Positions 7,736-36,038 of a stretch of 45,838 nt of DNA are shown here, piece by piece. Positions within the stretch are counted from its first letter, which is position 1; the number at the start of each line of letters is the position of its first letter. Where the stretch lies: assembly GCA_014143165.1 (NCBI GenBank), contig GCA_014143165.1_4843.1; one strand, written 5' to 3'. This DNA comes from a phage. The notes beneath the pieces were generated by a model. It ran no database searches, was not told the origin of the DNA, and saw only the letters and a list, made by a program, of their open reading frames with translations. The position numbers and the translations under genes were made by a program.

Positions 7736-7764
7736 TTGACACCTGTGAGGTGGTGATGTAGATT
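7736..7764 (+). promoter_or_regulatory. sigma70-type promoter (TTGACA-17 bp-TAGATT)
   Basis: TTGACA at 7736-7741, 17-bp spacer, TAGATT at 7759-7764; a GAGG RBS and ATG follow. Confidence 0.5.
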
Positions 7765-7787
7765 CAAGTCATCGAAACGAGGTATGA

Positions 7788-7994
7788 ATGAGGTTAGCTA
7801 TGGACGTTGTTATTTTGTTGTTTTTTGTTGGCTTGGTGATATTTGCGTACCTTCTGCCATCTTTTGTGGCCCTGCAACGCAAGCACGTAAACACGACTGC
7901 AATCTGCGTACTGAATATTCTTGTCGGATGGAGCTTTATTGGATGGGTTGCGGCACTGGTTTGGGCATTGGTTAAAAGTGGCGACAAGAAATGA
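7788..7994 (+). CDS. superinfection-immunity-like small membrane protein
   Basis: Product ...LPSFVALQRKHVNTTAICVLNILVGWSFIGWVAALVWALVK matches the hydrophobic GW..IGW..AL.WAL pattern of Imm-type superinfection immunity proteins; own promoter; antisense to tail genes. Confidence 0.55.
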   Translation: MRLAMDVVILLFFVGLVIFAYLLPSFVALQRKHVNTTAICVLNILVGWSFIGWVAALVWALVKSGDKK

Positions 7995-8133
7995 ACGAGC
8001 AAACAAAAGCAGACCTGATTTTCTACACTGAACTGTATGTTGATGCAGGTTACGACTATGAAGAAGCTGAACGCATGGCGAAAGACTTACTCCGCGTGAT
8101 TGGTGTTATTTTTGATGAGGACAAGGTGATATG
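7991..8133 (+). CDS. hypothetical small protein (47 aa)
   Basis: ATG overlaps the upstream stop (ATGA); not in the supplied ORF track (below 60 aa). Confidence 0.3.
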
Positions 8134-8331
8134 AGCCAGTGGATTAAGTGTGGTGAGATGCTTCCTGGCGATGGGTATACGGATAAGGAGTTCCTGGTGT
8201 ATGAAATGTTGAATAACGCAGTTCAGCATGATTATTACATCGTTCCTGATGATGGTAGAAAGCCATTCTGGAATCACTATGGTAAGTACGTGACTCACTG
8301 GATGCCACTACCAGAGCCACCACAAGAATAA
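8131..8331 (+). CDS. DUF551-like phage protein
   Basis: C-terminal ...YVTHWMPLPEPPQE as in DUF551 proteins; last gene of the small plus-strand unit. Confidence 0.5.
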   Translation: MSQWIKCGEMLPGDGYTDKEFLVYEMLNNAVQHDYYIVPDDGRKPFWNHYGKYVTHWMPLPEPPQE

Positions 8332-8335
8332 AACA

Positions 8336-8362
8336 AAGCCCCTTTCGGGGCTTTTTCTTTAT
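8336..8362 (+). terminator. rho-independent terminator
   Basis: GCCCC-TTTC-GGGGC hairpin followed by TTTTTCTTT. Confidence 0.6.
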
Positions 8363-9078
8363 CAGGATACGGTGCAAGCCGTGCTCAGGATAACTTCAGG
8401 GTCAGTAGATGAATCAGTTACCGTAACGGTATACACGCCAGCAGTTGGGCTTGCCAGTGATGCGCCAGATTCGCCGCCAACAACCGCGCCATCTTTGCGC
8501 CATACATAAGTGTAAGGTGTAACGCCACCCTCAACAGCAACAGTTAACGGGCTGCCAGTGCTGCCAGTTGATTGCAGGTCGGTGGTGAATGCCAGAGGTT
8601 CAAGGCTTTCAATTGACACCGTATCGCCGTCGTAAGGCTTGAACTCAACGGAACCGGTGACAATATCGTTTGTTCCACCTTCCCATGACAACCCGGTGAT
8701 GTTGCAGTACGCGGTGGTGATGGTGCTGCCAGTGACTTGACGAACCCACAGAGACGGTTGCCTGCGCGCACTCATCTCAGTGGTGAACATCTGGATTAGT
8801 TTATGAATACCATACTCGTCTGATTTATCATTTTTTTTAATTTCAAAATCACCGCTGATAGTCATGTCCGCTGTTGTCACCAGAGTGGCGACGAAGCCGC
8901 TATTGGTATCAGCTTCACTTGATGTGGTATTAGGGCTGAAATCAACCCCGTTATTGGTGAGTGAGCCAAAATACTTCCAATCTTCCTGTGACGGTTCTGC
9001 ATCTGAGCACCCGTCAGCAAGGAAGATTCGCATCATTCTTCCCACCAGAATTCCGTTGTTATTTGCACAAATAGCCAT
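8362..9078 (-). CDS. major tail protein with C-terminal Ig-like domain
   Basis: 238 aa; C-terminal ...TVAVEGGVTPYTYVWRKDGAVVGG...GVYTVTVTD is Ig-like (Big_2-type); sits upstream of chaperone and tape measure. Confidence 0.65.
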   Translation of the reverse strand: MAICANNNGILVGRMMRIFLADGCSDAEPSQEDWKYFGSLTNNGVDFSPNTTSSEADTNSGFVATLVTTADMTISGDFEIKKNDKSDEYGIHKLIQMFTTEMSARRQPSLWVRQVTGSTITTAYCNITGLSWEGGTNDIVTGSVEFKPYDGDTVSIESLEPLAFTTDLQSTGSTGSPLTVAVEGGVTPYTYVWRKDGAVVGGESGASLASPTAGVYTVTVTDSSTDPEVILSTACTVS

Positions 9079-9129
9079 TTCGATCTCCGAATTGTGTTAG
9101 CTGCTAACGTGGTGATTATATCACAGGTG

Positions 9130-9158
9130 TTGACAGTGATTATTTTGTGGTGTAGATT
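9130..9158 (+). promoter_or_regulatory. sigma70-type promoter (TTGACA-17 bp-TAGATT)
   Basis: TTGACA 9130-9135, 17-bp spacer, TAGATT 9153-9158; same architecture as the 7736 promoter. Confidence 0.5.
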
Positions 9159-9165
9159 AAAGTCT

Positions 9166-9612
9166 ACTTAAGATATGAATTGATTTATGCGTGAGTTTTC
9201 AACTTTCTGAAAGGAAGGTGACCAAAATGAATGAAATCTCAATTTGAAGAGGTCAAAATAATTAGCGGTCGAGAGACGCCGGACGCGTAACCGGCACACA
9301 ACAGGTAAGAGCATTGGTGTACCAGAAGCCCGTGGGTTATGGCTAAGGAGTCCCAAGTGAGCGCATAAGTGCTCTTTCCGTTGTGGTGAATGCGCAGGCT
9401 GATGCGCGAAAGACATTGCAGCTATTGCGGAAAAGAGCTGTTCGGCGGGGCAATTAAACGCCCGTGAGAGTCTGAAATAACCGCAAGCCGGAGATCAGCA
9501 CCGGCCACCACAACACTTAATATCCAGCATTATCGCAATCATATGTAGGGGTATGTATGGGTTACGGGGCTGGATATTAAGAAAGCACGCTGGCAATGCT
9601 TAAACCAGTAAT
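9166..9612 (+). ncRNA. candidate structured non-coding RNA (about 450 nt, unknown class)
   Basis: Promoter-to-terminator interval with no plus-strand ORF over 25 codons and no RBS-ATG pair; perfect 13-bp inverted repeat CTTAATATCCAGC (9516-9528) / GCTGGATATTAAG (9569-9581) plus several short GC stems. Confidence 0.3.
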
Positions 9613-9641
9613 AAGGCCGCCAAGTGCGGCTTTATTTATTT
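9613..9641 (+). terminator. rho-independent terminator
   Basis: GCCGC-CAAGT-GCGGC hairpin followed by TTTATTTATTT. Confidence 0.55.
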
Positions 9642-10010
9642 AACAACCCGCAAAAGCAACTCATGCACAGGTCTTTTTTCTTCCGTCAGCATTGGCCTAC
9701 CGAGCGGAGCCTGCAACTGGATGTAGTTCACGCACAAATCAATCGGATGCGTCTTGATGTATTCGATAATCTCATTGGCTTTAGCGTCAACATCCGACAC
9801 GTTATACTGTCCATGTTTGCCGACAACGTACAGCGAGAAATAAAAGTCACCACCAAGTCCATCCATCACCTGCGTGCCGCCGTTGGATTGCAGGACAATA
9901 AATTGCTCGTTGCCATTTTCGGTGTCATTCCAGAACTGCAATTGCGAAGTCCAGCCATCATACAATCCAGCATCCTGAAGATATGCATCAACCAGCTCAA
10001 GCATATTCAT
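9636..10010 (-). CDS. putative tail completion / tail terminator protein
   Basis: 124-aa ORF between the gp10-like connector gene and the major tail gene; call by position. Confidence 0.35.
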   Translation of the reverse strand: MNMLELVDAYLQDAGLYDGWTSQLQFWNDTENGNEQFIVLQSNGGTQVMDGLGGDFYFSLYVVGKHGQYNVSDVDAKANEIIEYIKTHPIDLCVNYIQLQAPLGRPMLTEEKRPVHELLLRVVK

Positions 10011-10471: not shown

Positions 10472-10606
10472 TTTTTCTTGTGGCCTTGGATGCCTTTCTT
10501 TTCCAGTACCTGCCAGATGGTTTTACATACGCACTAAACCAGATTCTTGAGCCTGATTTGTTTCTGCTCTGTTTGTGGTTCTTGAGCTTTAATTTTTCAT
10601 CTTTCA

Positions 10607-11602: not shown

Positions 11603-11634
11603 TGCGAGTATCGCTGATGATATGTTTCCAGTGG

Positions 11635-12075: not shown

Positions 12076-12241
12076 TATTTTTTACCGCGCGATGGTGAGC
12101 GGGCAGAGCCGTTTGGTTTCACTGCGCCAGTTTTGCCGCCAGTTTTGGTATTGCCAGTAGCGCGAGAACGAGACGGACCGTTTGTTGAACCCATGTTCAA
12201 ATCTCCTGTTGTTTGATTAGCATGATTTTAGCATATTCCTG

Positions 12242-12270
12242 TTGACGTAGATTGACGTAGCGTTTATAGT
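12242..12270 (+). promoter_or_regulatory. sigma70-type promoter (TTGACG-17 bp-TATAGT) with tandem TTGACGTAGA
   Basis: TTGACG at 12242-12247 and 12252-12257; TATAGT at 12265-12270; drives the plus-strand ParB/MTase/clamp unit. Confidence 0.45.
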
Positions 12271-12311
12271 TGTTGATGTAGAAACAGCAATAAATGTTAG
12301 AGGTGATGAAA

Positions 12312-12485: not shown

Positions 12486-12488
12486 ACA

Positions 12489-13298
12489 ATGAAAACACTC
12501 AGCAAAATATATTCAGACAAAGAAACGCGCAACGGCATCGCTGTTAACAAAACCTATCTCGTGCCAGTTGAGCAAATCTATCTGGAACCGGGCTACAACA
12601 TCCGTGAAGCAGATGAGCAGCATGTGGAATATTTCGCGCAGTGCTGGGAATCAGGTCAGCCACTGCCAGCATTAACAGTTATTCCTGACGAGAAGGGAAT
12701 CCGCATTCTTAATGGTCAGCATCGCTATCTCGGCGAATTGCGTGCCATTGAGCGTGGCGCGCCAATCGTTCGCATTGAGTGTAATGATTTTACAGGAGAC
12801 GAAGCAGATAAAATCGCCTTCATGGTGTCATCCAGTCAGGGTAAGCAGCTCGACCCGTTTGAGCGCGCAAAGGCTTACACGAGACTGAAAGGTTTTGGCT
12901 GGACGAATGAAGAAATCGCCAAAAAGGTAGGCCGCTCAGTATCTGATGTGCAAATGCATCTGTCACTGGGTGATGTTCCAGCGGAAGTGAAAGCGCGCAT
13001 CAGTGCAGGACAAATCAGCTATGCAAATGCCGTAGCGGTAACGCGCGAGCATGGTGATGATGCGGCTAAAGTTATCGACGAGGCAGTCGAAGAGGCCAAA
13101 GCACAAGGCAAAGACAAGGTCACAGCGAAAGTACTGAAGGCGAAAAAGATTAAGCCAGTAGACCGCCTGATTGAGTTATTGAAGCCAGCCGACCATGTGA
13201 TTCTCCCCGCTGGTCATGTGGTGGCAGAGGATGAGGAATTTATCCAGATTCCTGTCGCAGACATTCACGAGGTTATGGCAATTCTGGAGAAGATGTGA
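12489..13298 (+). CDS. ParB-like N-terminal-domain (ParB/Srx fold) DNA-binding protein
   Basis: N-terminal ...VPVEQIYLEPGYNIRE... and ...LNGQHRYLGELRA (ParB GERRxRA-box-like), followed by HTH-like WTNEEIAKKVGRSVSDVQMHLSL. Confidence 0.65.
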   Translation: MKTLSKIYSDKETRNGIAVNKTYLVPVEQIYLEPGYNIREADEQHVEYFAQCWESGQPLPALTVIPDEKGIRILNGQHRYLGELRAIERGAPIVRIECNDFTGDEADKIAFMVSSSQGKQLDPFERAKAYTRLKGFGWTNEEIAKKVGRSVSDVQMHLSLGDVPAEVKARISAGQISYANAVAVTREHGDDAAKVIDEAVEEAKAQGKDKVTAKVLKAKKIKPVDRLIELLKPADHVILPAGHVVAEDEEFIQIPVADIHEVMAILEKM

Positions 13299-14095
13299 TG
13301 ATAGTCCACTACTACAATGAGTGGGACAAGGGCGCAGCGGCATGGCTGCGCGAATTAATTAACAATAAACTAATTCCTTACGGATATGTCGATGAGCGAT
13401 CAATTACCGAAGTCACCCCTTCAGACCTGGAAGGATTTACACAATGTCACTTCTTTGCCGGAATCGGAGGGTGGCCCCTTGCACTCCAGCTGGCAGGAAT
13501 ACCAGAGAGCACTCGACTCTGGACAGGATCACCACCTTGCCAGCCGTTTAGCGTTGCCGGTCAGTCTCGCGGATTTGATGACGAACGACACCTTGCCCCT
13601 GTATTTCTCCGGCTCATCAGAGAGTGCAAACCTGAATTGCTATTTGGAGAGCAGGTTGCGGCAGCAATTGCAAAGCACTGGCTCGACTTTGTATTCCTTA
13701 ACCTGGAAGAAAAAGGCTACACCTGCGGGGCGGCAGTATTGCCAGCTTGCAGCGTCGGCTCTCCACAGGAAAGGAAAAGAACCATCTTTGGCGCGAGGAT
13801 GGGCGACACCAACAGCGCGAGGATGGAAGGATTATGGGAATCTCAGCAAGTCATTTTACAGAAAGGACGGAAAATTCAGGAACGATACTCTTTATCGCCA
13901 GATGTGGCTTCATGTTTATGGGATTCATGGAAACCCAAACATGGAGCAGATAAAGAAACTAGAGTCATACCAGGCGGATTTTGCGAGGCAACTCATGGGG
14001 TATCCGCAAGAGTGGGACGACTGCGCGGTTATGGCAATGCCATAGTTCCACAAGTCGCAGCAGAATTCATTAAAGCATTCATGAGGTCCGTTTAA
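13295..14095 (+). CDS. compact DNA (cytosine-5)-methyltransferase
   Basis: Motif I FFAGIGGW, motif IV GSPPCQPFSVAGQ, motif VI LLFGEQV, motif VIII GSPQERKRTIFGA, motif X GYGNAIVPQVAAEFIKAF. A second open frame (13386..14045) carries a motif-IX-like FARQLMGYPQEW (see findings). Confidence 0.7.
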   Translation: MMIVHYYNEWDKGAAAWLRELINNKLIPYGYVDERSITEVTPSDLEGFTQCHFFAGIGGWPLALQLAGIPESTRLWTGSPPCQPFSVAGQSRGFDDERHLAPVFLRLIRECKPELLFGEQVAAAIAKHWLDFVFLNLEEKGYTCGAAVLPACSVGSPQERKRTIFGARMGDTNSARMEGLWESQQVILQKGRKIQERYSLSPDVASCLWDSWKPKHGADKETRVIPGGFCEATHGVSARVGRLRGYGNAIVPQVAAEFIKAFMRSV

Positions 14096-15088: not shown

Positions 15089-15092
15089 ACCA

Positions 15093-15120
15093 AAGCCCCT
15101 TTACGGGGCTTTTCTTTTAT
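15093..15120 (+). terminator. rho-independent terminator
   Basis: GCCCC-TTTA-CGGGGC hairpin plus TTTTCTTTTAT; nearly identical to the terminator at 8336-8362. Confidence 0.6.
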
Positions 15121-16004: not shown

Positions 16005-16008
16005 CAGT

Positions 16009-16206: not shown

Positions 16207-16248
16207 TATTCACCTCAAATTCACAAAGGGGCTTTCGCCCCTTTTCTA

Positions 16249-17321: not shown

Positions 17322-19075
<1,754 letters not shown>

Positions 19076-19112
19076 ACTAACCCCTGCTGTTGGTTAACTT
19101 AGGAATTATATC

Positions 19113-20510
19113 ATGCCGAAGAAGATGACTATTGATGAGCTCAAAGAAAAGATTCGTAGCGTTCATGGCGAGACGTATGAGTATGATTTTCATACCTTCC
19201 ATGGCTGCCACTCACCAATGAAAATAGTATGCAAAAAGCATGGGGAATTCTGGCAAAAGCCATCCAAACACCTTCATGGTCAGGGGTGTGCAAAGTGCCA
19301 AAGGGGCGTTATTTCTGTCGATGACTTCAAATCAATGGCCTCCGCTATTCATGACGGGAAATATGACTATAGCAAGGTTTTTTTTGAAGCGTTTTCAAGG
19401 GCAAAGATAACAATCGGATGCCCGATTCATGGGTGGTTTGAGCAATTGGCCTACATTCATCTGAAGAGGGGTAATGGATGCCCAAGGTGTGGAGATGAGA
19501 GATCGAGAAAAGCCAAGTTAAAAAAGTTCAGCAATTTTGTTGATGATGCGAAATACGTCCATGGTGATAAGTATGAGTATTCCCCGAATGGTTTTACTGG
19601 TTCTCGAGGCAAGATTAATATCTTATGTCCTACACATGGTGAGTTTACTCAAGGTGCCGCAAATCACCTGGCTGGTAATGGGTGCCCATCGTGCGCAAGA
19701 GTGATGTCAAACATAGAAGCCGATATCCTTGCATTTGTTAAGTCACTGGACCCACATGTGATCAGCAGGGATAGAGCAACGATAGCACCATATGAACTGG
19801 ATATAGTCTCAAGAGCAAAATCATTAGCCATAGAGGTAAACGGCACATACTGGCACTCGGAGAGGGCTGGGAAAGATAGGTTATATCACAAAATGAAAAG
19901 AGAGATGGTTGAAGAATCTGGGATGAGATTGATAAGCATAAGAAGTGATATATGGAGAGATAAGCGCGAATTAGTAGAGGAAATAATAATTAATGCCATG
20001 GGGGCATCTGAGAGCAGGAAGGTTGACGCAAGAAAGTGCACCATTAAAGATGTATCACCATCTGAATCAAGGGCTTTTCTTGATAGATACCATGTTATGG
20101 GAGGGAGGAATGCCAGTAGGCACTTCGGTTTATTTTGTGGCGGTGAACTGGTATCTGTTATGTCATTTACAGTAAGGAAAGGTTCTGTTGAGTTAGTTAG
20201 ATTCGCATCTAAATGCAATGTTCGTGGTGGGTTAACAAAGATGCTAAAACACTGCTCATCAGTTGTTGGTTTTGATAAGTGTTTCAGCTATGTAGACCTT
20301 GATTTGTTTACCGGTAAATCATACCTCTTAGCTGGCTTTAAAGCTGTAAGCATAAAACCCGGATTCGCGATTGTTAACGGAAATCATGTGGAATCAAGGC
20401 AAAAGTGGAATAAGGCACCTAATGGCATGACTCAGAGCGAATGGTACGAATCTGAAGGCGTAAGCAGGATATGGGATAGCGGACAAATGAGAATAGAGTG
20501 GAGTAAATAG
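19113..20510 (+). CDS. endonuclease-like protein: three tandem zinc-ribbon repeats, PD-(D/E)xK (Vsr-like) core, unknown C-terminal domain
   Basis: Three repeats of C-x2-HG-x-F-x-Q...HL-x-G-x-GCP-x-C; nuclease-like YELDIV...LAIEVNGTYWHSE; about 140-aa C-terminal domain of unknown fold; inserted antisense between structural genes. Confidence 0.55.
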   Translation: MPKKMTIDELKEKIRSVHGETYEYDFHTFHGCHSPMKIVCKKHGEFWQKPSKHLHGQGCAKCQRGVISVDDFKSMASAIHDGKYDYSKVFFEAFSRAKITIGCPIHGWFEQLAYIHLKRGNGCPRCGDERSRKAKLKKFSNFVDDAKYVHGDKYEYSPNGFTGSRGKINILCPTHGEFTQGAANHLAGNGCPSCARVMSNIEADILAFVKSLDPHVISRDRATIAPYELDIVSRAKSLAIEVNGTYWHSERAGKDRLYHKMKREMVEESGMRLISIRSDIWRDKRELVEEIIINAMGASESRKVDARKCTIKDVSPSESRAFLDRYHVMGGRNASRHFGLFCGGELVSVMSFTVRKGSVELVRFASKCNVRGGLTKMLKHCSSVVGFDKCFSYVDLDLFTGKSYLLAGFKAVSIKPGFAIVNGNHVESRQKWNKAPNGMTQSEWYESEGVSRIWDSGQMRIEWSK

Positions 20511-20518: not shown

Positions 20519-20543
20519 AGGTGTCATTTGACACCTTTTTTTG
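20519..20543 (+). terminator. rho-independent terminator
   Basis: GGTGTC-ATTTG-ACACC hairpin followed by TTTTTTT. Confidence 0.5.
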
Positions 20544-20856
20544 TGGTCGAATTATAACACAGGGAGATATAGCACCATGAGGCGGTAGCCAGTGCAAATA
20601 ATGGCGAATCGGTGAGTGCGTATAGCGTGAGAAAGTAAGGGATGGGGATTATGTTCATGGGCTACCTCCTGATTAAATGATAGCAGCCCATGATGAACAA
20701 AAGATATACGGTGTTAGTCTGAAATCACATCATCCATGAATGCAAGCGCAGCACCTGAAAGACAGAACAGAGCGCCATAGCAAATCATCTGGTAGAGAGT
20801 GTCAGCCTCAAATACCCTCGCGAATGCGTAAGCGGATAAAATCCACAGTAATGGAA

Positions 20857-21682: not shown

Positions 21683-22171
21683 TCATACTCTTGCTTCTTG
21701 CGTTTGGCTTTCCCCATAATGACCCCTCACATTGCGAAGAAGTGAATTGAACAGGTTGCTGACGTTAACTTCCTGCTCACGCCACGAATAACGCCACAGC
21801 TTCTTGTGGTGGTCATAGCTTCGCGTCACATCACCGTTATGAAACATGATGCGGATTCTGCTTTTCACGATTCGGTAATCAATACCAGTGGCTACGCTGA
21901 TTTCTTTCACTTCCGCGCCAGCATTATCAAGCAGGTGACACTTAATCGCATCATCAATGCCAGCAGCATCATCAGAGATGAAATATTTATACTGCCACTT
22001 GCCACCACGAATCACTGACTTCTCACGGCGAATGAAGCCAAGAGCAAGCATCTCATGCAAACGATGCGTTGTAGTGCTTGAATGTTTTCCGCTGCAATGC
22101 TTCTCAATGTATGCGCGAGTTGCACCAGGATGATTGATAATCACGCGCATGATTTGTGATTTATAATCCAT
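21683..22171 (-). CDS. putative winged-helix DNA-binding protein
   Basis: ATG at 22171 lies just after the Lar-like stop; product MDYKSQIMRVIINHPGATRAYIEKHC...HRLHEMLALGFIRREK...GGKW has a winged-helix-like pattern. The longer track ORF (to 22336) overlaps the Lar-like gene. Confidence 0.4.
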   Translation of the reverse strand: MDYKSQIMRVIINHPGATRAYIEKHCSGKHSSTTTHRLHEMLALGFIRREKSVIRGGKWQYKYFISDDAAGIDDAIKCHLLDNAGAEVKEISVATGIDYRIVKSRIRIMFHNGDVTRSYDHHKKLWRYSWREQEVNVSNLFNSLLRNVRGHYGESQTQEARV

Positions 22172-22858: not shown

Positions 22859-22958
22859 TTCCACATCACCTTTTCCGTTGTGGTACAATCTACGTCAATA
22901 AGTATTGACTAAATGATGTAGATTGGTCAACAATAATTTCCGAAAAGGAGTAGTAAAT

Positions 22959-23174
22959 ATGCCAAGACCACGACGCGAGCCGATGGACATTATCACCAGC
23001 ATTGTGGAGAAGCGGCAGCCGCTGACGCTCCGTGATGTTCGCTACTTTGCCCGTTGCTATGTGGCGCTGGCTGATATGTCTAAAAATGACATGTATGATT
23101 TAATTCGTGCCAACTTCAGTGTTGACGAGAATAACAAAGTCACAATAAAGGAGAGTGATGATGGATTGGAATGA
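22959..23174 (+). CDS. hypothetical protein
   Basis: AAGGAG RBS 8 nt upstream of ATG 22959. Confidence 0.4.
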   Translation: MPRPRREPMDIITSIVEKRQPLTLRDVRYFARCYVALADMSKNDMYDLIRANFSVDENNKVTIKESDDGLE

Positions 23175-23643
23175 TGTGTTCGAATACCGTGATGGGTTGC
23201 TATATTGGAAGATAAAAACAAACAGAAACATGAAAATAGGGAGGATGGCAGGAAGCATGGCAGGTAATGGGTACATGCAGGTTCATTGCTTTGGAAAAGT
23301 GCGACTGATGCATAGAATAATTTGGGAAATGCACAATGGTGAGATACCGGAGGGGATGGAGATTGATCATATAAACCACATTCGTGATGATAATAGGATT
23401 GAGAATCTCAGATTGGTAAGCAGAAAGCAGAACGCCAAGAATCTTTCTATGCGATCTGATAACACGAGTAATGTTGTCGGAGTTAGTTGGGATAATAAGA
23501 GTAAGAAATGGTATGCAAAGATTGCCGTGAACGGAAAGCAGATTGCGCTTGGCAGATTCTCAAACTTGTCAATGGCTGCAGAGTGCAGAAAAGCAGCTGA
23601 GGAAAAATATTGTTTCCATAAAAATCACGGAGCATTAAAGTAA
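23155..23643 (+). CDS. HNH homing endonuclease with AP2 DNA-binding domain
   Basis: HNH motif EIDHINHIRDDNRIENLRLVSRKQN; AP2-like GVSWDNKSKKWYAKIAVNGKQIALGRFSNLSMAA. Confidence 0.75.
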   Translation: MMMDWNDVFEYRDGLLYWKIKTNRNMKIGRMAGSMAGNGYMQVHCFGKVRLMHRIIWEMHNGEIPEGMEIDHINHIRDDNRIENLRLVSRKQNAKNLSMRSDNTSNVVGVSWDNKSKKWYAKIAVNGKQIALGRFSNLSMAAECRKAAEEKYCFHKNHGALK

Positions 23644-24351: not shown

Positions 24352-24378
24352 CAAGCCCCGTCATGGGGCTTTTTTTCA
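24352..24378 (+). terminator. rho-independent terminator
   Basis: CCCC-GTCAT-GGGG hairpin followed by TTTTTTT. Confidence 0.55.
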
Positions 24379-25206: not shown

Positions 25207-25426
25207 CGCGCAGCCTCCGGTTTTCCTTCCTCATGCCGTGCATTTTGCTGAGGATGCCAACAAGCATGATTGAGTAGCTCACACCTTTAACCACGATTGG
25301 CGGTAGCGCCGCTTTCAGGTCATCCGGCATCATTACCCACACATGCATCATTGCATCAGGCCATAGCTGTAACAATGAGCAGAATGAAATCCACGCGCCG
25401 AGCAGCCAGTTGCTTAGCTTTTTCAT
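25187..25426 (-). CDS. putative holin
   Basis: 79 aa with two hydrophobic segments and a charged C-terminus; between endolysin and spanins. Confidence 0.45.
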   Translation of the reverse strand: MKKLSNWLLGAWISFCSLLQLWPDAMMHVWVMMPDDLKAALPPIVVKGVSYSIMLVGILSKMHGMRKENRRLRDDVDSR

Positions 25427-25863
25427 TGCCCCATATACATAGCGCGCTCTGCGTTACGCCTCCGCGTCAGGCCATTCATAACCTTGCCAGCAGCACGATT
25501 CCACACGAGGAACTGACTCGCTGCGCAGGTGTAGCACTTCTCATTATGTTTGCGCAGCAGAGTTGATTTGCGGAAATTTCCCAGACCGATGTTGTAGGCC
25601 AGAGACACCATTGCATCGAATTGCGACTGAGTGGTTGGCGCAGCTAACAGTGCTGACACGCCATCCTCAAACTTCTTCACGTCACTATCCAGCCATGCGT
25701 TAGCCATTTCCTGCGTCACTGTCATTCCAGGCTTCACGTCTGCGCCAGTGTGGCCATATCCAGCAGTCCACGGAGCGCCACCCGTAGCCGGGTCAGGATA
25801 AGCACTAAGCTCCAGCCCTTCAAATGACTTGATGAGTTCTTTGCCGCGTTGCGATAGTTTCAT
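25423..25863 (-). CDS. endolysin (T4-lysozyme-like, GH24)
   Basis: N-terminal ...LIKSFEGLELSAYPD...WTAGYGHTG... matches the lysozyme E..D..T catalytic region. Confidence 0.75.
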   Translation of the reverse strand: MKLSQRGKELIKSFEGLELSAYPDPATGGAPWTAGYGHTGADVKPGMTVTQEMANAWLDSDVKKFEDGVSALLAAPTTQSQFDAMVSLAYNIGLGNFRKSTLLRKHNEKCYTCAASQFLVWNRAAGKVMNGLTRRRNAERAMYMGQ

Positions 25864-25906
25864 TCTGCCTCCTGTTCAAATAATGATTAATTCTATCACA
25901 ATGATA

Positions 25907-25937
25907 TTGACGTAGATTGAGTGGTGGTGCATAGTAT
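25907..25937 (+). promoter_or_regulatory. sigma70-type promoter with TTGACGTAGATTG element
   Basis: TTGACG 25907-25912 followed by TAGATTG; TAGTAT about 19 bp downstream; precedes the plus-strand unit 25968-27369. Confidence 0.45.
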
Positions 25938-27369: not shown

Positions 27370-27447
27370 AACAATATTCAGCGTCGTAGAGATATTGTGC
27401 TATGCGATAATAATATTTGTTCTGTGCATGCTGATAAGATAAATCAA

Positions 27448-27472: not shown

Positions 27473-28403
27473 TTGCCAGTTGCCATGCTTCGCGCTGTTT
27501 ATCAAGTCTTCCCTGTGACGACTCAAGAATAACTGGCTTGCCATCCATTAACAATGCAGGTGCTTGCGCGCAGTGACAATTATATCTGTTGCCATTCTCG
27601 CTGTAGAACGTGTCAATTTCTTCTGGCGTGTAAAACCGTCCATGCCGTGCCGCATGAGTCTGGCGGGTTGTGCGCATTAATGCAGATTGCCACAGCATTA
27701 CCGTCTCAATACCCAACTCCTCGCGCGCCTCAATGACTTCTTTCCTGTTAGCCTGCCGCAGTGTTCCGGTGATTTCAGTCTGCGCTATCTGTTTCGCGTA
27801 GCTGTGAGACACATCGACACGCTTAACGATATCATCTTCAACATCGCGAGGGTTAGCGCCGCGAGCAATGCCTTCCATAATGACAGATGCCAGTTGCTGG
27901 CGGGAGTAATCACTCAATCCGCGCCAGTCTGAATATCCTGCTGTGTACGCCAATTGGAGTCGACTCAGGTAAGCTTCACTGTAGAGTATCGCGGCAATCG
28001 GCCTCTGTTCTGCATAAACAGGAGACAGACTTGACAGTTCAGAGTTAGCCTTCTGCGTGCCAGCCTGATACGCATCACCAATGAACACGTTAGCCCACAG
28101 TCTGCCGTGACTGAAATCATCACCTTCAAGCAGAATCTCGTCAATCAGCGCCTGCAACTCATCCATGAACGTGGCAGCTCGCGCGCTGCTGAAATCATAG
28201 AAATATAGGCCGCTTGATTCTGCGTTAGCCTGACTACTCGGAATAGTGCGAAACAACTCAAGCGCACGAGTCCTGAGTTGTTTGTATTTACGCGTTATAA
28301 CCTTGTCCATTTTAGACAAGCGAGTCGCAGCGCCCAACGGGTCGGTCAGGCTCTGTGATATGCGCGGTTGGGGAAGTCTTGTGTTAAACCTGAGTATCTT
28401 CAT
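27453..28403 (-). CDS. head morphogenesis protein (Mu F / SPP1 gp7-like)
   Basis: Position immediately downstream of the portal gene; about 317 aa. Start chosen at ATG 28403; the track ORF extends to 28484. Confidence 0.5.
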
Positions 28404-29796
28404 TTTCGTCTTCCGGTGGTGTGTCTTCGCGGTAGGCTTCGTCGAGTTCAATCGGGTCCATACCAACCATGCCGCGAGCCTCATCGACGGTCAGCAATGC
28501 AGATTGACCAGCATCAAAGAACGACTTGTTCGCAGTGGCGAGTTTAGCCAGCAATTCAGCTTTATCCAGTTCCGATGGTGCCAGCAGGTCATCCCATTTA
28601 ACCTTGTAGCCATTTGCCGTGGCTTTATCGACAATGCCGAACTGAATCATGCGCTCAACGAACATTGAAATAACATAGTCAACCCACGTTTCACGGCGCT
28701 GTTTGGCGGTCATCGCCTCCTGCATCTTGTCTTCATCACTCGCAAGGCGTCCGGTTTGCTGACCAAAAATGACGGTGAACGGAAGCGCCATTGATGCAGC
28801 GAACTGGTTGGCTGCCACCTCCCATGTGGGTTTCGGGTCAGCTGGAGTCACAGCGAGAACTTTTGCATCCGCACCCATTGTGAACATAGCGGCGTCGATG
28901 CCTGAGTTTAACGCCTCAATGTTCTCATTCATGATGTCGGTAAGTTCTTCAATATCGACACCCATCGACTGCGCAAGACTTGCTGGCGTTACGTTATCTT
29001 TCGTGTAGTTAACTGCCAGTTGACGGCTGGCATTCTTCAGGAAGCCTTCTGCTGAGCTACCGGAAACCTTCGCCATGTCGATAAGGCTGTTGTAGCCAGC
29101 ACGCAACATCGGGATGCCACTGAACATGCTGCCGTCAAAACTACCCTCAGCCAGAATAATGATGCGGTCAGGGTGAATCTGTACAGAACGCTCAGGTTTG
29201 CCGTCGCTATCAAAGTCCTCCACGGCGCTTTCCTGGTATTCGTACATCTCAGGCATGCCGTAGTCTTCGCTGGTTTCATCGTTATTCCATGCGCTGGCGC
29301 GGAGCTGCTCTTCCCACACTGGAATGAAGCGAACGATGGATTTATCTTTAATGCGGCGGGTTTTGGTGATATCTACCGGTTCGTTCCACTGGCGACCATC
29401 ACGGATTTGCAGGATAACAGCGGAATAGCGGTTGATGGCGTTGCGCTTGTCAGCCTCTTTGATGAACGGATATGCGCGCTTCATTATGTCGTTGATGGAT
29501 AGCTCCCACGACGTTGAGTTCTTATCATCCTCGCCATCTTCAACTACTTCAGGGTATTTCTGCCAGCATTTATTAATAATGCGGTTAATGCCAGCAGCGG
29601 CGGCTGGATGTCGCTCATAGGCGTAGCGGAACATCTCGGCGGTGATTTCCTGCGGGTATCCCAGTTCCTTCCACATAAATTCACGTTTCTGGTCCAGATT
29701 CTTCCCGCCAGCGCAAAGCCGTTGCTGCTGAATCGCCCGGTTATTGTTCGCCACGCGGTCGCGTATATAAGCGTTTAGTGCATCAATTTTGGACAT
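28384..29796 (-). CDS. portal protein
   Basis: 470-aa ORF between terminase and head morphogenesis genes, acidic C-terminus. Confidence 0.65.
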
Positions 29797-29802
29797 ATGT
29801 CA

Positions 29803-29833
29803 CCAATAAAAAATCCCTCACGATGGAGGGATT
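29803..29833 (-). terminator. rho-independent terminator (minus strand)
   Basis: Minus-strand hairpin TCCCTC-CATCGT-GAGGGA followed by TTTTTTATT, just upstream of the portal start. Confidence 0.5.
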
Positions 29834-29858
29834 ATAGCATGACTGCTTGGCGCAAAAG

Positions 29859-30200: not shown

Positions 30201-30229
30201 TATTTCACCTCTATTTAATATATAAATGG

Positions 30230-30481: not shown

Positions 30482-30487
30482 TCCACC

Positions 30488-31215: not shown

Positions 31216-31246
31216 AGTTATATCTCCGATAAACCTGATGTAGATT

Positions 31247-31275
31247 ATACTATGCGCTCGGTGTAGATTGGTCAA
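31247..31275 (-). promoter_or_regulatory. sigma70-type promoter (minus strand)
   Basis: Minus-strand TTGACC (31275..31270), 17-bp spacer containing AATCTACA, then TAGTATAAT. Confidence 0.45.
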
Positions 31276-31291
31276 GTGTGGTGATGCAGAT

Positions 31292-32716
31292 TTATCTCCT
31301 GCGCCGGATTAGCATCCCGCTACCGCGCTGGACGATGTGATCATTAAGTGCGTAACGAACCGCATCCCAGTAGTGGTTATATGCATCAACAATATCAGTC
31401 AGCACATTCCCTGTCAGCTTATCGACCTTGTAGCTGTACATTGCAGCTTCATTCTGCATCTCCTTGCATCGTTCGTGAATAACAATGCCGTCACAGCCGC
31501 GCAGCCACGTTACACCATCTTCAACGCTACCTGGCCATTTCGTGCATGGATGAATATCAAATCCAGAACGCTTTATGTGGCTGATTGTTTCAGGCCGAGC
31601 ACAGTCGGCATACCATCGTGCGCGCTTAGCCATCGGGAATGATTGTTGCATCGCGGCTGGCGTGTCAGTAATCTCAAGCCCAACCCTGCCATACTCGCGA
31701 TTAATATAAATGTTGCGCCGTCCACCTGGTAATTCTTCGATGTAAACCTCAACCATCGCGGTAGGGTCAGTGGAGAAACCGAAGTCCATACCGAAGTATG
31801 GTCCATGCCATTCAGGTTTAACCTCAAAGTTGTCGACGCGCCATTTGCCGCCGAAGACTTGTTCGTCGCTGCGCTTGTTGAAGGATCCCATCCAAATCCA
31901 GCGATAACGGTCGTAATCAGTTCGCTTCATTTGCTCCATAGCGGATGGCAACGGCGTATCCCAGAACCACGGGTTGTCTGAATAGTTACATTCGATAATC
32001 AGTATTTCATCATTTTCGAATATGCCATCAACCATCTGTGAGTGATAGGGGGCAATCCAGTTTTTCCACGTCGGGTCTGTGTCTTTGTTGGGGTTGAATG
32101 AGCACCACAACTCAGAGTTTGCAGCACGGATGGTAGGCACGAGAATATCCCAGCTTGTCTGGCTGACGTTCTCTGCTTCCTCTACCCAGCCAACGGTAAT
32201 GCCAGCAAAACCTTTAACCGTAGTCTGGTTGCGATACAACCCTTTGAAGCGGAATTTAGCTTTGGTCTTCTTGTGTGTTATCTCGTTGTTGATAACACGG
32301 AACTCAGCTGACTCACCCTTACGCGCTATTTCGTCGCACAATTCCTGATAGCTTGAGTCTTCAATGGATTGCTGAATCTCACGAAAGCAGGCGAAACGGT
32401 CAGGTCGAAACCTTGCACGCTCAGTAAGTATAGTGATAATCGTTCTCGTCTTACCTGACCCGCGGCCACCGTAGACAAACTTGAATCGTTTGGGATAAAG
32501 CAGGCGCTCCAGTTTTGCAGGAATCAGGTGGTCGGCATGATTAGTTACATTGGTCACATCATCAACGCCAGTGGCGGTCATCCTTAACCGCTTAATGACA
32601 TTCTTCTGCATGTCGCAGATGCCAAAGATAGCTGACTCTGCAACATCAGTCATTGCATCATCAATCTGCGCTTCCAGCTTTTCGATTGCTAGAGCGGAAA
32701 GGCGTTTACGAGCCAT
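31292..32716 (-). CDS. terL: terminase large subunit
   Basis: Walker A VYGGRGSGKT; 474 aa with C-terminal nuclease-like region; followed by the portal gene after an inserted small-gene block. Confidence 0.85.
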   Translation of the reverse strand: MARKRLSALAIEKLEAQIDDAMTDVAESAIFGICDMQKNVIKRLRMTATGVDDVTNVTNHADHLIPAKLERLLYPKRFKFVYGGRGSGKTRTIITILTERARFRPDRFACFREIQQSIEDSSYQELCDEIARKGESAEFRVINNEITHKKTKAKFRFKGLYRNQTTVKGFAGITVGWVEEAENVSQTSWDILVPTIRAANSELWCSFNPNKDTDPTWKNWIAPYHSQMVDGIFENDEILIIECNYSDNPWFWDTPLPSAMEQMKRTDYDRYRWIWMGSFNKRSDEQVFGGKWRVDNFEVKPEWHGPYFGMDFGFSTDPTAMVEVYIEELPGGRRNIYINREYGRVGLEITDTPAAMQQSFPMAKRARWYADCARPETISHIKRSGFDIHPCTKWPGSVEDGVTWLRGCDGIVIHERCKEMQNEAAMYSYKVDKLTGNVLTDIVDAYNHYWDAVRYALNDHIVQRGSGMLIRRRR

Positions 32717-32844
32717 TGATTAGCCCCTGCAAAACAGTCATCACCTCTTCATCGGTCATTGCTTTATCAAATGTAACGCCGCGACTACTGCTGTTGCGTG
32801 GCAATAGCACCTCATCACATTTTGATTTATAGTTATTTGCTTCA

Positions 32845-33264
32845 TCATCCATTCTGCTGCTCCAGTAATTTCTCCAGTCGCTCAAGTCGCGCGGCGAGTT
32901 CGGTGACTTCTGCAATATCCAGTCCTGTCCTGATAACTTCAGCAAATGTCTTGCCAATGTCCACAGGCATGACGCCAGATGCGATGCCTCGAATAACGGC
33001 ATCAATCTTCTGAACGGGGGTTCCATCATCAGGGAAGTCCACCTCAAACACCGGGGCAACAGGTTTAGGTAATGGGCTGAATCGAACGATAAGCTCCTTC
33101 ATCATCGCGGTGTCACGTTCAATCATTGCCATCTCAACGATGGTGTCATAGAGCTTTTCCTCACTAAACCCCTTTCTCTCAAGAGCTTCAACGAGCAACT
33201 TACGCTTGTCTTTTCCGCGTTTATTTTGCGGTTGATTTTCTTTACTGAATAGCTTTTTAGCCAT
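32845..33264 (-). CDS. terS: putative terminase small subunit
   Basis: 139-aa basic N-terminus and coiled-coil C-terminus, immediately upstream of terL. Confidence 0.45.
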   Translation of the reverse strand: MAKKLFSKENQPQNKRGKDKRKLLVEALERKGFSEEKLYDTIVEMAMIERDTAMMKELIVRFSPLPKPVAPVFEVDFPDDGTPVQKIDAVIRGIASGVMPVDIGKTFAEVIRTGLDIAEVTELAARLERLEKLLEQQNG

Positions 33265-33914
33265 AGATAAAACCTATCAATATTCCGCTATTTTTCCGTT
33301 ATTCGATATTGTAACAGATTCTACACCATGACGTTAATGGCAAAAAAGAACCCGCACAAGGCGGGTTAAAGGTTGGGTGATGATATGAGTGAAGCAATGG
33401 TTGTTATGCGTTTATTGTACACCATCATTATCACGCTTGCCAGCATAGCACCATGCATTTTCATTTCGCGTCTGCACATGAACGATTTCAAGCGCATCAG
33501 GGAATGTCTTTGCGACCTTCGCGATGAAATCGTCCAGTTCGTGTTGTTTGGCGAGATTCCAGACTTTCTGCTTAGTGGTTTGCATTAGCATAATCCCTCG
33601 TGGAGCACATGCACTTAATGTTATGCACGCCATTGTCAGGCACAACCTCAATGTAATTACCTATCTGCACCATCATGTAATGACATGTCTTCATACTGTC
33701 CCAGTAGCGCTCCCACATGTTTTGCATTGCGTCACTGATATCGTTAAACATAATGCACAACTCCTGCGATAGCGGCTACCAGAGCCAGAGCGTACACAGC
33801 AAGGAAGATTTTATCGCCAGCGGTGTAGCGGCGTCGTTGGTGTCTGGTCATATGTATTCCTCCACTAAAGCGTGCGCCACAAAGAGCGCACTGATAATTA
33901 ATATGAACGGGTAG

Positions 33915-34382
33915 CTATTCACTTTTAGCCAGGGTTTCGAATTGCTGGTTGGTCGTGTCGCAATGGGTATCAGTATCTTTTGCATCACCGCTTAACTTTG
34001 CGTGCAAATGGATAACGCGCCAACCTCTACTAATCCAGTCATCTGCAATACCCTTGCTGCGAGTTATTGCTGGAATGCCAAGTCCATTATCATAATGAAT
34101 CCATGCCATTGGTTCATTGCTATAAGCGTTACGAAGTTTCTGTATCTCATCATCCATAGACAAAAACTTCTCGTGTGCCAATTTGACAGCTGCATCCGCT
34201 TTTCTCATTGACTCCATAGCTAATTCATTCTCAGCTTCCAGCGCCGCGCATTTGGCTTGCAGCGCCTCGTAGTCACGGTGCCTTACATAAATACCATCAT
34301 CCGAAAGTTCCATTCTGGCTTCGCTAAGGTTGCAATTACCATCCATATCGCCAACAAGGTCATAACGCTTAACTTCACTCAT
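33915..34382 (-). CDS. hypothetical early protein
   Basis: 155-aa ORF. Confidence 0.4.
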   Translation of the reverse strand: MSEVKRYDLVGDMDGNCNLSEARMELSDDGIYVRHRDYEALQAKCAALEAENELAMESMRKADAAVKLAHEKFLSMDDEIQKLRNAYSNEPMAWIHYDNGLGIPAITRSKGIADDWISRGWRVIHLHAKLSGDAKDTDTHCDTTNQQFETLAKSE

Positions 34383-34617
34383 ACCCTAACCCCCCATAAT
34401 TTCTTCGTAATAGCTATCTTCTTCAAACTCAATCTTTGCGATTTTGAATGCATCCTCATCGGTGATGTCAATCGCTTTGAATTTGCACTTCGCCAGCACG
34501 ATGCAGCCAGACAGGATTAGCCACTTATTCCACCAGCGAACTCGCTTAATTGCCTTGCTCGCATACATTTTGTTCTGTACAAACCAGAGCTCGTATGTTT
34601 TTACTTTTGCCATATCA

Positions 34618-35267
34618 TCACCCTATTTCACATATCATATAAACTTTCCTCATTAGGCCGTCAAACAGCATTGGGTGTATAGAATCACATAACCCCTTAA
34701 TTTGCTTTGCTTGCTTTATCTTTTCATTCTTCCATGCCTGATGCGCTTCAATCACCGAACTGAAATAGCCTAAAAATACTGTACGACCATTGCCATCACC
34801 TATGTGCGCTTGATAGGCGCCAGAACACTTATTAAATGACACACCTATAGGCAAGTCACCTCTCGAGGCATTCCTTGCTGTCACGAAGTTGTTTAGGTGT
34901 GGAGGCACGTAAACACATGCTTCAGGTGAGTAAGTCAAATTACCCGGAATCAATATATCCTTATCAAGGTGCCACCCTTCAACGTAATGGTTCTTCCACC
35001 ACAAATTAAAGTTTGAAAACATCAGCCACTCATTACAACAAGTAACATTCTCATATGTTTTGTGTTGTTTTTGAATCCATCATCAAAACACCTCCTGAGC
35101 ATTTGATACCATTGGCTATATCCATAATGTTGCACCTTTTTACCATCAACTTTCATCGCAACACCGAAGCCACAATCATTAACTCCAACACCAAATATTG
35201 GCTTTCTTTTTCCTTTCTTTATATCTCTGTTAAGCTCCATTTTTATGGAGAGATTTTTCTTTTGCAT
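34618..35267 (-). pseudogene. HNH homing endonuclease (with AP2-like domain) split by a frameshift
   Basis: Two abutting ORFs, 35022..35267 and 34618..35022, overlap as TGATG. Family-like sequence ...RCFDDGFKNNTK / TYENVTCCNEWLMFSNFNLWWKNHYVEGWHLDKD... continues across frames; both frames are open around the T/A runs at 35058-35072. Confidence 0.5.
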
Positions 35268-36009
35268 TTCTTTTCCTCATGGCCTTTAGTCTGCAATATG
35301 GACAGCAGTACTTCTTGTCACTTCTGCATCCTGGCAACAGGTCTTTCCCGCACATCAAGCACTTCATTATTAATCCTCACAATAAAGATAACACATAGCT
35401 GTTATCATATCAAGATGTAATGCAATCCATTATCACAATAAAACATATCAAAAGTGGTAGCTTTCCTGTTCAGAACACGATAATCAGCTCATCCATTACT
35501 CTGCGCTTACCTTCACCATTAAACACGCGCACAACGCGATTTACACGTATAGATTCCATTGCATTGCGTGCCTGCTTGCTCATAAAGTTCTGCGCGCCAA
35601 CATGACCAAGTTCTTGTTCCAGCTTCTCTCGTCGATAGATAGTCTTTGCCATTTATTGCACCTCGTAAGAATTAGTGATTGCCTTAATGCGGCGACGATA
35701 CCATTGCATGATGTGCTCGTTATGCCAGTTGCTCATTCTGCTACCCCTTGTACCCTGATTTAGAAACTGCCACTGCGATAATGATGAACGCCACGATAAC
35801 AATACTGGCGATAAGTTCTAATGCTGCGCCTGTCATTTGCTTAACCCATACGCGGATATTAAAGCCTGCATTGCTGCGTTCCAGAATGCTTCGGCAAGAA
35901 TGCTGTTGTTTGTGCGCTCAACTGCAATGCGTGCCATAGCCTGAGCATCCTCAAATTCTTCAAGGTCTTTGTTCTTCATCTCTTCAACCTCACTTGTTTC
36001 GATGAGTTC

Positions 36010-36038
36010 AATCTACATCAGATGTGATTCTACGTCAA
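36010..36038 (-). promoter_or_regulatory. sigma70-type promoter (minus strand; TTGACG-17 bp-TAGATT)
   Basis: Minus-strand TTGACG (36038..36033), 17-bp spacer, TAGATT (36015..36010); first gene ATG at 35979 with GAGG RBS. Confidence 0.5.

Follow-up and report, generated by a model that had tools for sequence, protein, structure and literature searches.

The stretch of DNA considered here, called the window throughout, comprises all 45,838 nucleotides (nt) of contig GCA_014143165.1_4843.1 of the GenBank assembly GCA_014143165.1, and derives from a phage. Its non-coding DNA carries a recurring short word, TGAYGTAGAWT, which is the subject of this text. The window has a G+C content of 46% and shares approximately 89–92% DNA identity over most of its length with lytic siphophages of the Skatevirus/Swiduovirus/Shuimuvirus cluster, among them Escherichia phage swi2, Salmonella/Klebsiella phage IME207 and BASEL phage Bas80. 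Because the tailspike gene spans both ends of the window, the window is the whole, circularly permuted genome of about 46 kilobases (kb) of a lytic siphophage, and the motif census is complete for this phage. The phages VLCpiS13a and pIS4-A show about 70% DNA identity to the window in conserved genes, with portal proteins about 70% identical, while the temperate Cronobacter phage ENT47670 possesses a related portal/structural module with a portal 42% identical to that of the window. Genes were called with a simple self-trained codon model, which assigns about 8–9% of the genome to intergenic DNA.

An earlier note on this window, made from the sequence alone, had described an 8-mer, GTAGATTG, that recurs at or beside the -35 and -10 hexamers of most recognisable promoters. 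All coordinates listed there hold the sequence given for them, and the 8-mer is indeed more frequent than base composition predicts, with 7 occurrences against 1.27 expected and none of 100 shuffles reaching 7. Six of the seven copies are located at listed sites; the seventh, within a tail gene (3589–3596, minus strand), is missing from that list. The listed sites at 7755, 9151 and 31238 read GTAGATT followed by C or A, and GTAGAAT is present at 33316 and at one of the two copies in 36010–36038. The combined word GTAGA[AT]T occurs 16 times in the window, 12 times in intergenic DNA (binomial p about 6e-11). When 7-mers were ranked without bias by their excess in intergenic DNA, GTAGATT shared the top rank of the window with the terminator stem words AAGCCCC/GGGGCTT. 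It led the ranking in IME207, VLCpiS13a and pIS4-A and came second in swi2, and the stem words AAGCCCC and AAAGCCC were near the top in each genome. A high-order Markov test of k-mer enrichment was uninformative, since the sub-words of the motif are themselves enriched, while a second-order model and the comparison of intergenic with coding DNA worked.

The true recurring unit is longer than the 8-mer, namely the asymmetric 11-mer TGAYGTAGAWT, of which GTAGATT is the core. A logo was built from the intergenic GTAGA[AT]T sites of the window and four relatives, using one site per orthologous group (33 sites). In the four positions 5' of this anchor, which played no part in the selection of sites, the bases are T (31/33), G (32/33), A (25/33, with G in 7/33) and C or T (33/33). 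On its 3' side the anchor continues with G or C and an A. Sequence beyond positions -5 to +8 is almost uninformative, so that the sites are no copies of a longer repeat. The exact 11-mer is found 8 times in the window, against 0.13 expected and no more than one in any shuffle, and all eight copies are intergenic. The degenerate pattern TGRYGTAnnnT reads TAGA(T/A)T in 72 of 83 intergenic cases, compared with 3 of 50 coding cases, so that the two halves are joined only in non-coding DNA; copies of the motif are almost absent from coding regions. Dyad symmetry was tested in the 11-mer and none was found. Pairs of copies occur as direct repeats 10, 17, 23 or 31 base pairs (bp) apart or as inverted repeats 25–29 bp apart, without a fixed arrangement. 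The 14-mer TGTAGATTGGTCAA, to which the note had also drawn attention, does have two exact copies, but shows no enrichment when up to three mismatches are allowed (8 matches against 4.8 expected, with 10 of 100 shuffles reaching 8), and it was rejected as the unit. The two identical 14-mers arise because a motif copy abuts an opposite-strand TTGACC -35 hexamer at the promoters P4 and P7 listed below.

The exact 11-mer is present in ten relatives with 8–10 copies each, including swi2, IME207, Bas80, VLCpiS13a, KFS-SE2, Segz_1, F14, pIS4-A and Akira, the last of which carries 9 copies at the usual places. ENT47670 contains none, and its five GTAGAWT words represent no excess over the 7.3 expected. 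Since the 11-mer occurs in these ten relatives and is absent from ENT47670, which shares the structural module, the motif is, on this distribution, a property of the lytic Skate-like lineage and not of the host or of the structural genes. In alignments with the Klebsiella-type relatives the flanks are scrambled, while the words TTGACA, TATAG, TGnTAnAAT and the motif itself are kept. A scan of viral contigs for TTGACGTAGATTGA returned mostly 46–48 kb contigs of the same cluster together with scattered single matches, and is uninformative on distant lineages. In Segz_1, positions 23365–23395 form a perfect palindrome, ATTCTACAT-TTGA-ATGTAGAAT, which consists of two outward-pointing motif cores between divergent genes.

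The position of the motif relative to genes is confined. Over seven genomes, 51 of the 61 exact copies lie 30–72 nt 5' of a co-oriented start codon, and the distances form two groups. In the near group (30–46 nt), the TAGATT of the motif occupies the expected -10 position, and TTGACA or TTGACG is located exactly 17 bp 5' of it at P1 (7736–7764), P2 (9130–9158) and P9 (36038–36010). In the far group (50–72 nt), the motif lies within TTGACGTAGATT, the first bases of which constitute the -35, and a separate -10 is placed 17 bp downstream (TATAGT at P3, 12242–12270; CATAGT at P6, 25907–25935; TAGATT itself at P9). In other placements the core abuts a -35 in either orientation, lies in a spacer or is found at about +1. 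The motif-bearing promoters of the window, P1 to P9, and their additional copies are the following.

P1, 7736–7764, plus strand: TTGACA-N17-TAGATT, with the motif TGATGTAGATT at 7754–7764 as -10; 42 nt before the start of the superinfection-immunity operon (7800).
P2, 9130–9158, plus strand: TTGACA-N17-TAGATT, with the variant TGGTGTAGATT at 9148–9158; predicted to drive a 480-nt non-coding stretch (tRNA genes in relatives).
P3, 12242–12284, plus strand: TTGACGTAGATT with the motif at 12243–12253 abutting or overlapping the -35, N17, and the -10 TATAGT at 12265–12270; serves the ParB-like/methylase/RusA operon.
Extra copies of P3, plus strand: degenerate TGACGTAGCGT at 12253–12263 and a third copy, TGATGTAGAAA, at 12274–12284, at about +1.
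P4, 22887–22930, minus strand: TTGACC (22930–22925), N18, AATACT (22906–22901) and the motif TGACGTAGATT (22897–22887) at about +1; 35 nt 5' of the operon holding a tandem winged-helix gene. Alternatively, the motif serves as its own -10.
P5, 22905–22924, plus strand: TTGACT, 8 nt, TAGATT, with the motif TGATGTAGATT at 22914–22924, in the spacer; 41 nt before the gene at 22959.
P6, 25907–25945, plus strand: TTGACGTAGATT (motif at 25908–25918), N17, CATAGT; a reversed copy, TGATGTAGATA (25945–25935, minus strand), directly after the -10.
Triplet, 31236–31292, plus strand: three copies 23 bp apart, TGATGTAGATT (31236–31246), CGGTGTAGATT (31259–31269) and TGATGCAGATT (31282–31292).
P7, minus strand: TTGACC (31275–31270), N17, TAGTAT (31252–31247), overlapped by the plus-strand triplet; promoter of the small genes upstream of the portal gene.
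P8, 33308–33337, minus strand: TTAACG-N18-TGT-TACAAT of the terS-like/terminase operon, with the variant TGGTGTAGAAT at 33328–33318 in the spacer, directly 3' of a terminator.
P9, 36010–36038, minus strand: TTGACGTAGAAT-N6-TGATGTAGATT, with one copy abutting the -35 (36037–36027), one at the -10 (36020–36010) and a 17-bp spacer; 37 nt 5' of a small early-type gene block, and adjoining the genome end in Akira.

A -35-like hexamer (TTGACA with at most one mismatch) is situated 16–18 bp 5' of TAnnnT at P1, P2, P3, P7 and P9. The other promoters read TTGACG-17-CATAGT (P6), TTAACG-18-TACAAT (P8) and TTGACC-18-AATACT (P4), and P5 has a weak candidate -10 only. At 12242, 25907 and 36038 the core comes immediately after the -35 in forward orientation, and at 22930 and 31275 it does so in reverse. 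When reversed, as in TTGACC followed by AATCTAC at P4 and P7, it fills the same spacer segment as the forward core in TTGAC followed by GTAGATT. Furthermore, reversed copies stand directly 3' of the -10 at P6 and P7, and the P5 motif abuts, in reverse, the TTGACC of P4, this overlap being the 14-mer mentioned above.

Several of these arrangements are conserved. P1 is retained in swi2, IME207, Segz_1, VLCpiS13a and pIS4-A though its spacer diverges. At P3, VLCpiS13a and pIS4-A have kept both TATAG and the GAYGTAGAAAC 3' of it, and the copy at about +1, TGAYGTAGAAAC, is kept in three clades although its TAGAAA lacks the critical T at -7. P4 retains TTGACN-N18-AATACT and GTAGATT (6–7 nt after the -10) in all six aligned genomes, in which a TTGAC immediately 5' of GTAGATT is not conserved. 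The -10 position of P9 is TAGATT in the clade of the window and TATAGT in Klebsiella-type relatives, which suggests that the two hexamers are interchangeable as -10. The triplet at 31236–31292 is followed by no plus-strand gene in the window, while small plus-strand genes are found there in swi2, Segz_1 and Akira.

The stretch of about 480 nt 3' of P2 (9160–9635, plus strand) ends in a hairpin with a T-run terminator. Relatives encode tRNA-Met, plus tRNA-Arg or tRNA-Gly, at this position; in the window, ARAGORN detected no tRNA and Rfam no family. Its folding is more favourable than that of shuffled sequence (z = -2.9), the sequence is shared by IME207, and the stretch may represent either a decayed tRNA island or a structured RNA.

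Next to the motif promoters lies a second promoter class. The word ATTATATCA just 5' of the -35 hexamers of P1 and P2 is the reverse complement of TGATATAAT, a consensus extended -10 element. The generalised form TGnTAnAAT occurs 13 times in the window; 1.2 intergenic copies would be expected, and there are 10 (p about 1e-8). Eight of these are found 32–49 nt before the tailspike, tail, major tail, head-tail, capsid, lysis, portal and terS-like genes; the remaining two are at 3376–3384 (minus strand) and 22881–22889 (plus strand). None of the eight late-operon sites is accompanied by a good -35, the terS-like promoter having merely TTAACG. The same pattern is repeated in swi2, IME207, VLCpiS13a, Segz_1, pIS4-A and Akira. 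The ten intergenic copies are the following.

797–805, minus strand: late-class TGATACAAT, ahead of the tailspike gene spanning the window ends.
3376–3384, minus strand: TGATAGAAT, 92 nt before the tail gene at 803–3289; conserved in Akira.
7716–7724, minus strand: late-class TGATATAAT, 35 nt before the tail gene at 6979–7686; back-to-back with P1, 11 bp from its -35.
9115–9123, minus strand: late-class TGATATAAT, 42 nt before the major tail protein gene at 8362–9078; 6 bp from the -35 of P2.
12225–12233, minus strand: late-class TGCTAAAAT, 36 nt before the head-tail block (12194 downwards); 8 bp from the -35 hexamer of P3.
19105–19113, minus strand: late-class TGATATAAT, 35 nt before the capsid-module gene at 17789–19075.
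22881–22889, plus strand: late-type TGGTACAAT, whose TACAAT (22884–22889) shares 3 bp (22887–22889) with the opposite-strand TAGATT of P4.
25890–25898, minus strand: late-class TGATAGAAT, 32 nt before the lysis cassette (endolysin at 25423–25863); 8 bp from the -35 hexamer of P6.
29831–29839, minus strand: late-class TGCTATAAT, 40 nt before the portal gene at 28384–29796.
33308–33316, minus strand: late-type TGnTAnAAT of the terS-like operon, part of P8.

Judged from these positions, the structural and lysis operons use a -35-independent class of extended -10 promoters; the labels early and late are assigned here from gene content alone. The earlier note had placed the motif at the promoters of early and accessory operons and had not seen it ahead of the late structural genes, and this division is confirmed: the motif precedes small-gene, accessory and DNA-metabolism operons, and the late structural genes carry TGnTAnAAT instead. 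There are two partial exceptions, namely the GTAGAAT copy in the spacer of the terS-like/terminase promoter (33318–33328) and the copies overlapping the promoter of the small genes before the portal gene (31236–31292).

The two classes are arranged back-to-back. In four divergent regions, the late -10 lies 6–11 bp from the -35 of the motif promoter on the opposite strand (7716/7736, 9115/9130, 12225/12242 and 25890/25907), and at 22881–22897 the late-type and P4 -10 hexamers overlap by 3 bp. This spacing suggests that a motif promoter and its late partner would not be occupied at the same time.

Beside the capsid-module promoter, a gene for an HNH/homing endonuclease of 465 amino acids (aa; PHROG 559) is inserted on the opposite strand (19113–20510, plus strand), and its start codon shares one base with the TGATATAAT word of that promoter. 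IME207 and Segz_1 do not contain this gene, swi2 and VLCpiS13a show weak partial matches elsewhere in their genomes, and Akira has an endonuclease at the same position. A second HNH gene is found at 23158–23643.

The motif is very probably a cis element embedded in promoters of the non-late class. A broader reading, given about an even chance, combines a sigma-70 promoter signature of early and accessory genes with a probable site of a putative phage factor that would switch the class. TGAYGTAGAWT would then mark the non-late promoters of the lineage, that is, those of early, accessory and DNA-metabolism genes, and these would be read by the host sigma-70 RNA polymerase. At P1, P2 and P9 the TAGATT of the motif would act as the -10; elsewhere, ordinary -35 and -10 hexamers would operate with the core at the -35, in the spacer or at the start site. 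Use of sigma-70 at the motif promoters is likely, because of the TTGACA-N17-TAnnnT geometry and because neither a phage polymerase nor a phage sigma factor was found among the annotated or scanned proteins. The putative phage-encoded protein would bind the motif and act on the whole promoter class together, most simply by shutting it off, and the silencing of a motif promoter would also free the late extended -10 promoter behind it.

Since bases dispensable for sigma-70 are invariant and the core stands beside the -35 in either orientation, the motif is probably also a protein-binding site. Three features point to such an added factor: the invariant TG is placed at -17/-16 instead of -15/-14, positions -10 and -8 are fixed as G and T against the consensus, and the clade-conserved TAGAAA copies at about +1 lack the critical T at -7.

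These observations have to be weighed against a simpler explanation, in which the motif would have no function beyond that of a promoter, being a self-sufficient element of the -10 type, specific to the lineage, that is recognised by the host sigma-70 holoenzyme alone and bound by no phage protein, the copies near a -35 or in a spacer being second, overlapping promoters of the same operon. This is considered unlikely, although it agrees with the co-orientation and the 30–72 nt distance of the 51 copies, and with TAGATT, which keeps T at -12, A at -11 and T at -7 and is exchanged for TATAGT in P9 orthologues. It would also fit that Akira retains the motif without the sole predicted regulator and that no DNA-binding protein was found in the part of the core gene set that was scanned. 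However, the known contacts of sigma-70 do not account for the invariant T-17, G-16, A-15, Y-14 and G-13 or for the fixed G-10 and T-8. The TG of the motif is two bases off the extended -10 position, with A or G at -15 and C or T at -14. Likewise, a pure promoter element would explain neither the conservation of the TAGAAA copies at about +1 of P3 in three clades, nor the reversed copies at 31236–31292, which are intact yet face no gene in the window or in IME207, nor the occupation of the same segment after the -35 by the core in both orientations.

The reading with an added factor requires a reader of the motif, for which the following predicted DNA-binding proteins of the window, among others, were considered.

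21683–22171, minus strand: tandem winged-helix protein of 162 aa in the P4 operon; PHROG 1687, annotated 'MarR'.
40061–40303, minus strand: Cro/YdaS-like helix-turn-helix (HTH) protein, the regulator proposed in the earlier note; not part of the system.

The product of 21683–22171 is the only conserved predicted DNA-binding regulator and thus a candidate reader. It gave no match in Pfam, MarR included, and no sequence match in the PDB. An AlphaFold model built on a 9-sequence alignment displays two tandem winged-helix domains with a predicted local distance difference test (pLDDT) score of 80.5; a single-sequence model was unusable (pLDDT 40). In a Foldseek search, the model matched multi-winged-helix proteins (the C-terminus of SelB, RPC62, TFIIIC), MarR and ArsR proteins matched one domain only, and no sigma-like fold was among the matches. 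The family is confined to the phage cluster, with 158 phage records and 8 representative clusters among 1.8 billion proteins, and this deep search therefore supplied no informative remote homologues. MarR-family regulators have a single winged HTH per subunit and bind palindromic operators as dimers, which neither the protein nor the motif resembles. A monomer with two winged helices, as modelled, would suit an asymmetric site of 11–13 bp.

As an essential reader, the winged-helix protein is weakened by Akira: the motif is kept there without the gene, and the protein is therefore not needed for motif retention. As a hidden sigma factor it was rejected, because it has no PDB sequence match and its fold is that of two winged helices. 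The ParB/KorB-like protein encoded at 12489–13298 was rejected as reader as well, since VLCpiS13a has a 19% fragment only and the motif is non-palindromic. The consensus sites of host transcription factors (IHF, NarL, DeoR, NsrR and others) are not known to match the motif.

The core shared by seven genomes includes nine small non-structural proteins of 44–108 aa. It is doubtful, but conceivable, that the reader is a small phage protein, possibly one of these, which would switch the whole non-late promoter class and, given the back-to-back late promoters, hand the shared intergenic regions to late transcription. PDB sequence searches with three of the conserved small proteins gave no match.

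Several points weigh against the combined reading. No candidate factor is left standing, as the Cro-like HTH protein lost on distribution and the winged-helix gene is missing in Akira, where a 30-aa remnant of it accompanies nine exact motif copies. No DNA-binding domain was detected by Pfam or PHROGs in the eight core small proteins scanned, which were all but that of 20524–20658. Nearly all exact copies face the downstream gene, which fits a directional promoter element at least as well as an operator. In a generic sigma-70 scan, promoter-like sites were no more frequent than in shuffled sequence, and the hexamer assignments at weak sites (AATACT, CAAnAT) are therefore soft. Finally, no transcription-start or expression study of this phage group was found in the literature, so that promoter use and timing are read here from the DNA.

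Alternatively, by analogy with gp36 of phiEco32 or MotA/AsiA of T4, the motif could be the single-element promoter of a polymerase redirected by the phage through a sigma-like or sigma-appropriating factor, forming a middle class that overlaps early sigma-70 promoters. Its core, GAYGTA, resembles the AATGTA element of middle and late promoters of phiEco32 (PMC12276001). Moreover, the offset of the motif to the sigma-70 hexamers varies while its distance to the gene start is tight, and P5 and the palindromic pair of Segz_1 have no properly spaced -35 of their own. Nevertheless, this is improbable. No sigma-like protein was found by Pfam and PHROG among the conserved non-structural proteins scanned, which cover part of the proteins of the window and eight of the nine conserved small proteins (20524–20658 excepted), and all nine are too small for a sigma factor. 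The 162-aa regulator has two winged helices and not sigma domains 2 and 4, and is dispensable in Akira. In addition, many motif promoters are already good sigma-70 promoters.

That the motif is the operator of the HTH protein at 40061–40303, as the earlier note had proposed, is very hard to sustain and was excluded: the protein is genuinely of the Cro/YdaS type (Pfam YdaS_toxin 7.6e-18, P22_Cro 3.9e-10; PHROG 35, 'transcriptional repressor'), but tblastn found no homologue in swi2, IME207, VLCpiS13a, Segz_1, pIS4-A or Akira, all of which bear the motif with 8–10 copies each, the gene sits in a motif-free replacement module, and the 11-mer lacks the dyad of a Cro/CI-type operator. The suggestion of a shared early-promoter consensus or operator survives in its link to a promoter class and fails in the regulator named for it. 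Equally remote is the idea that the repeats are leftovers of a recent duplication of a promoter cassette without selection as a motif, for although P1 and P9 share the extra sequence GTAGATTnAAnTCATCGAAAC 3' of the motif, the 33 non-orthologous sites are nearly information-free outside -5 to +8, the motif persists in relatives with scrambled intergenic flanks, and coding-region copies are almost absent.

The module that contains the HTH gene, a replication/recombination module of about 9 kb (36230–45015), is unique to the genome of the window among the relatives compared. It encodes prim-pol/PriCT-2/DUF3987, the Cro-like HTH protein, AAA_24, Gp157, DUF669, DUF3268 and a DEAD helicase, and stands in place of the usual helicase/primase/exonuclease VIII/Erf/SSB module of the cluster. 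The census of the window shows no copy of the promoter motif in this module, whose own promoter reads TTGACG-N17-CATTAT. The C5 cytosine methylase encoded at 13298–14095 is likewise without a counterpart in the relatives. Terminator hairpins of almost identical sequence, AAAGCCCC-loop-GGGGCTTT, also form a family in the window, with several bidirectional members.

Terminator hairpins, at 8335–8354, 15092–15112, 24353–24371, 16207–16248, 42267–42323 and others: the words of their stems are, together with GTAGATT, the 7-mers most enriched in intergenic DNA.

If a small phage protein does read the 11-mer and switch the whole non-late class as outlined above, small lytic siphophages of enterobacteria would possess a compact early-to-late switch of a kind so far undescribed for them. 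Phages of the Skatevirus type are frequently isolated on Salmonella, E. coli and Klebsiella, are in development for biocontrol and are represented in the BASEL collection, and apparently nothing has been published on the timing of their genes. The literature found on the motif and these phage genera consists of genome announcements and host-range work, with nothing on promoters or transcription. The map of two promoter classes could support the annotation of operons and timing in more than 200 genomes and supply promoter parts for engineering, with the 11-mer as bait for a regulator. Should the 11-mer be merely a sigma-70 element, it would be a natural case of strong selection at positions that sigma-70 models deem unimportant.

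Several known systems share individual traits with the motif promoters. Canonical sigma-70 promoters of coliphages possess, as here, TTGACA or TTGACG, a 17-bp spacer and TAnnnT, 30–45 nt before a Shine-Dalgarno sequence and start codon. Unlike in these, the -10 is fixed here as TAGATT together with five further invariant upstream bases, and the word is reused after the -35, in spacers and at +1. TAGATT itself is used as -10 by the lambda promoter PRM. Extended -10 promoters (TGnTATAAT) are matched by the second class, TGnTAnAAT without a -35 before late operons, and not by the 11-mer, whose TG lies at -17/-16 (also at -14/-13 when Y is T) instead of -15/-14.

The middle and late promoters of phiEco32 that depend on gp36 carry AATGTA centred at -11.5 (PMC12276001). 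Similar to these, the motif consists of one short element near -10, recurs before many operons and has a related core, GAYGTA as against AATGTA. In contrast to phiEco32, no gp36-like sigma was found here, the motif marks non-late genes, and it co-occurs with good -35 hexamers; a phage-encoded sigma-like protein of the phiEco32 gp36 or T4 gp55 type was absent from the proteins scanned. The MotA box of T4 is located near -30 and replaces the -35, whereas the position of the motif varies and good -35 hexamers are present.

KorB and KorA of IncP plasmids are global repressors whose repeated operators overlap promoters; these operators are palindromes bound by dimers. The motif shares with them the use of one short word at many promoters of one replicon, at a variable position relative to -35 and -10. 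The word is asymmetric here, however, and the ParB/KorB-like protein of the window (12489–13298) is largely absent from the motif-bearing VLCpiS13a.

Temporal schemes with two promoter classes, in which the early -35/-10 promoters are silenced while those independent of a -35 continue to work, are known from T4 (AsiA) and from the Thermus phage P23-45 (gp39). Neither an AsiA-like nor a gp39-like protein was identified here, and the early promoters of those systems are not known to contain an embedded 11-mer. As in these schemes, non-late operons of the window are -35-dependent and late ones have extended -10 promoters without a -35. A lineage-specific promoter or operator word of a phage is a well-known kind of feature, of which the present motif and its two-class map appear to be an undescribed instance.

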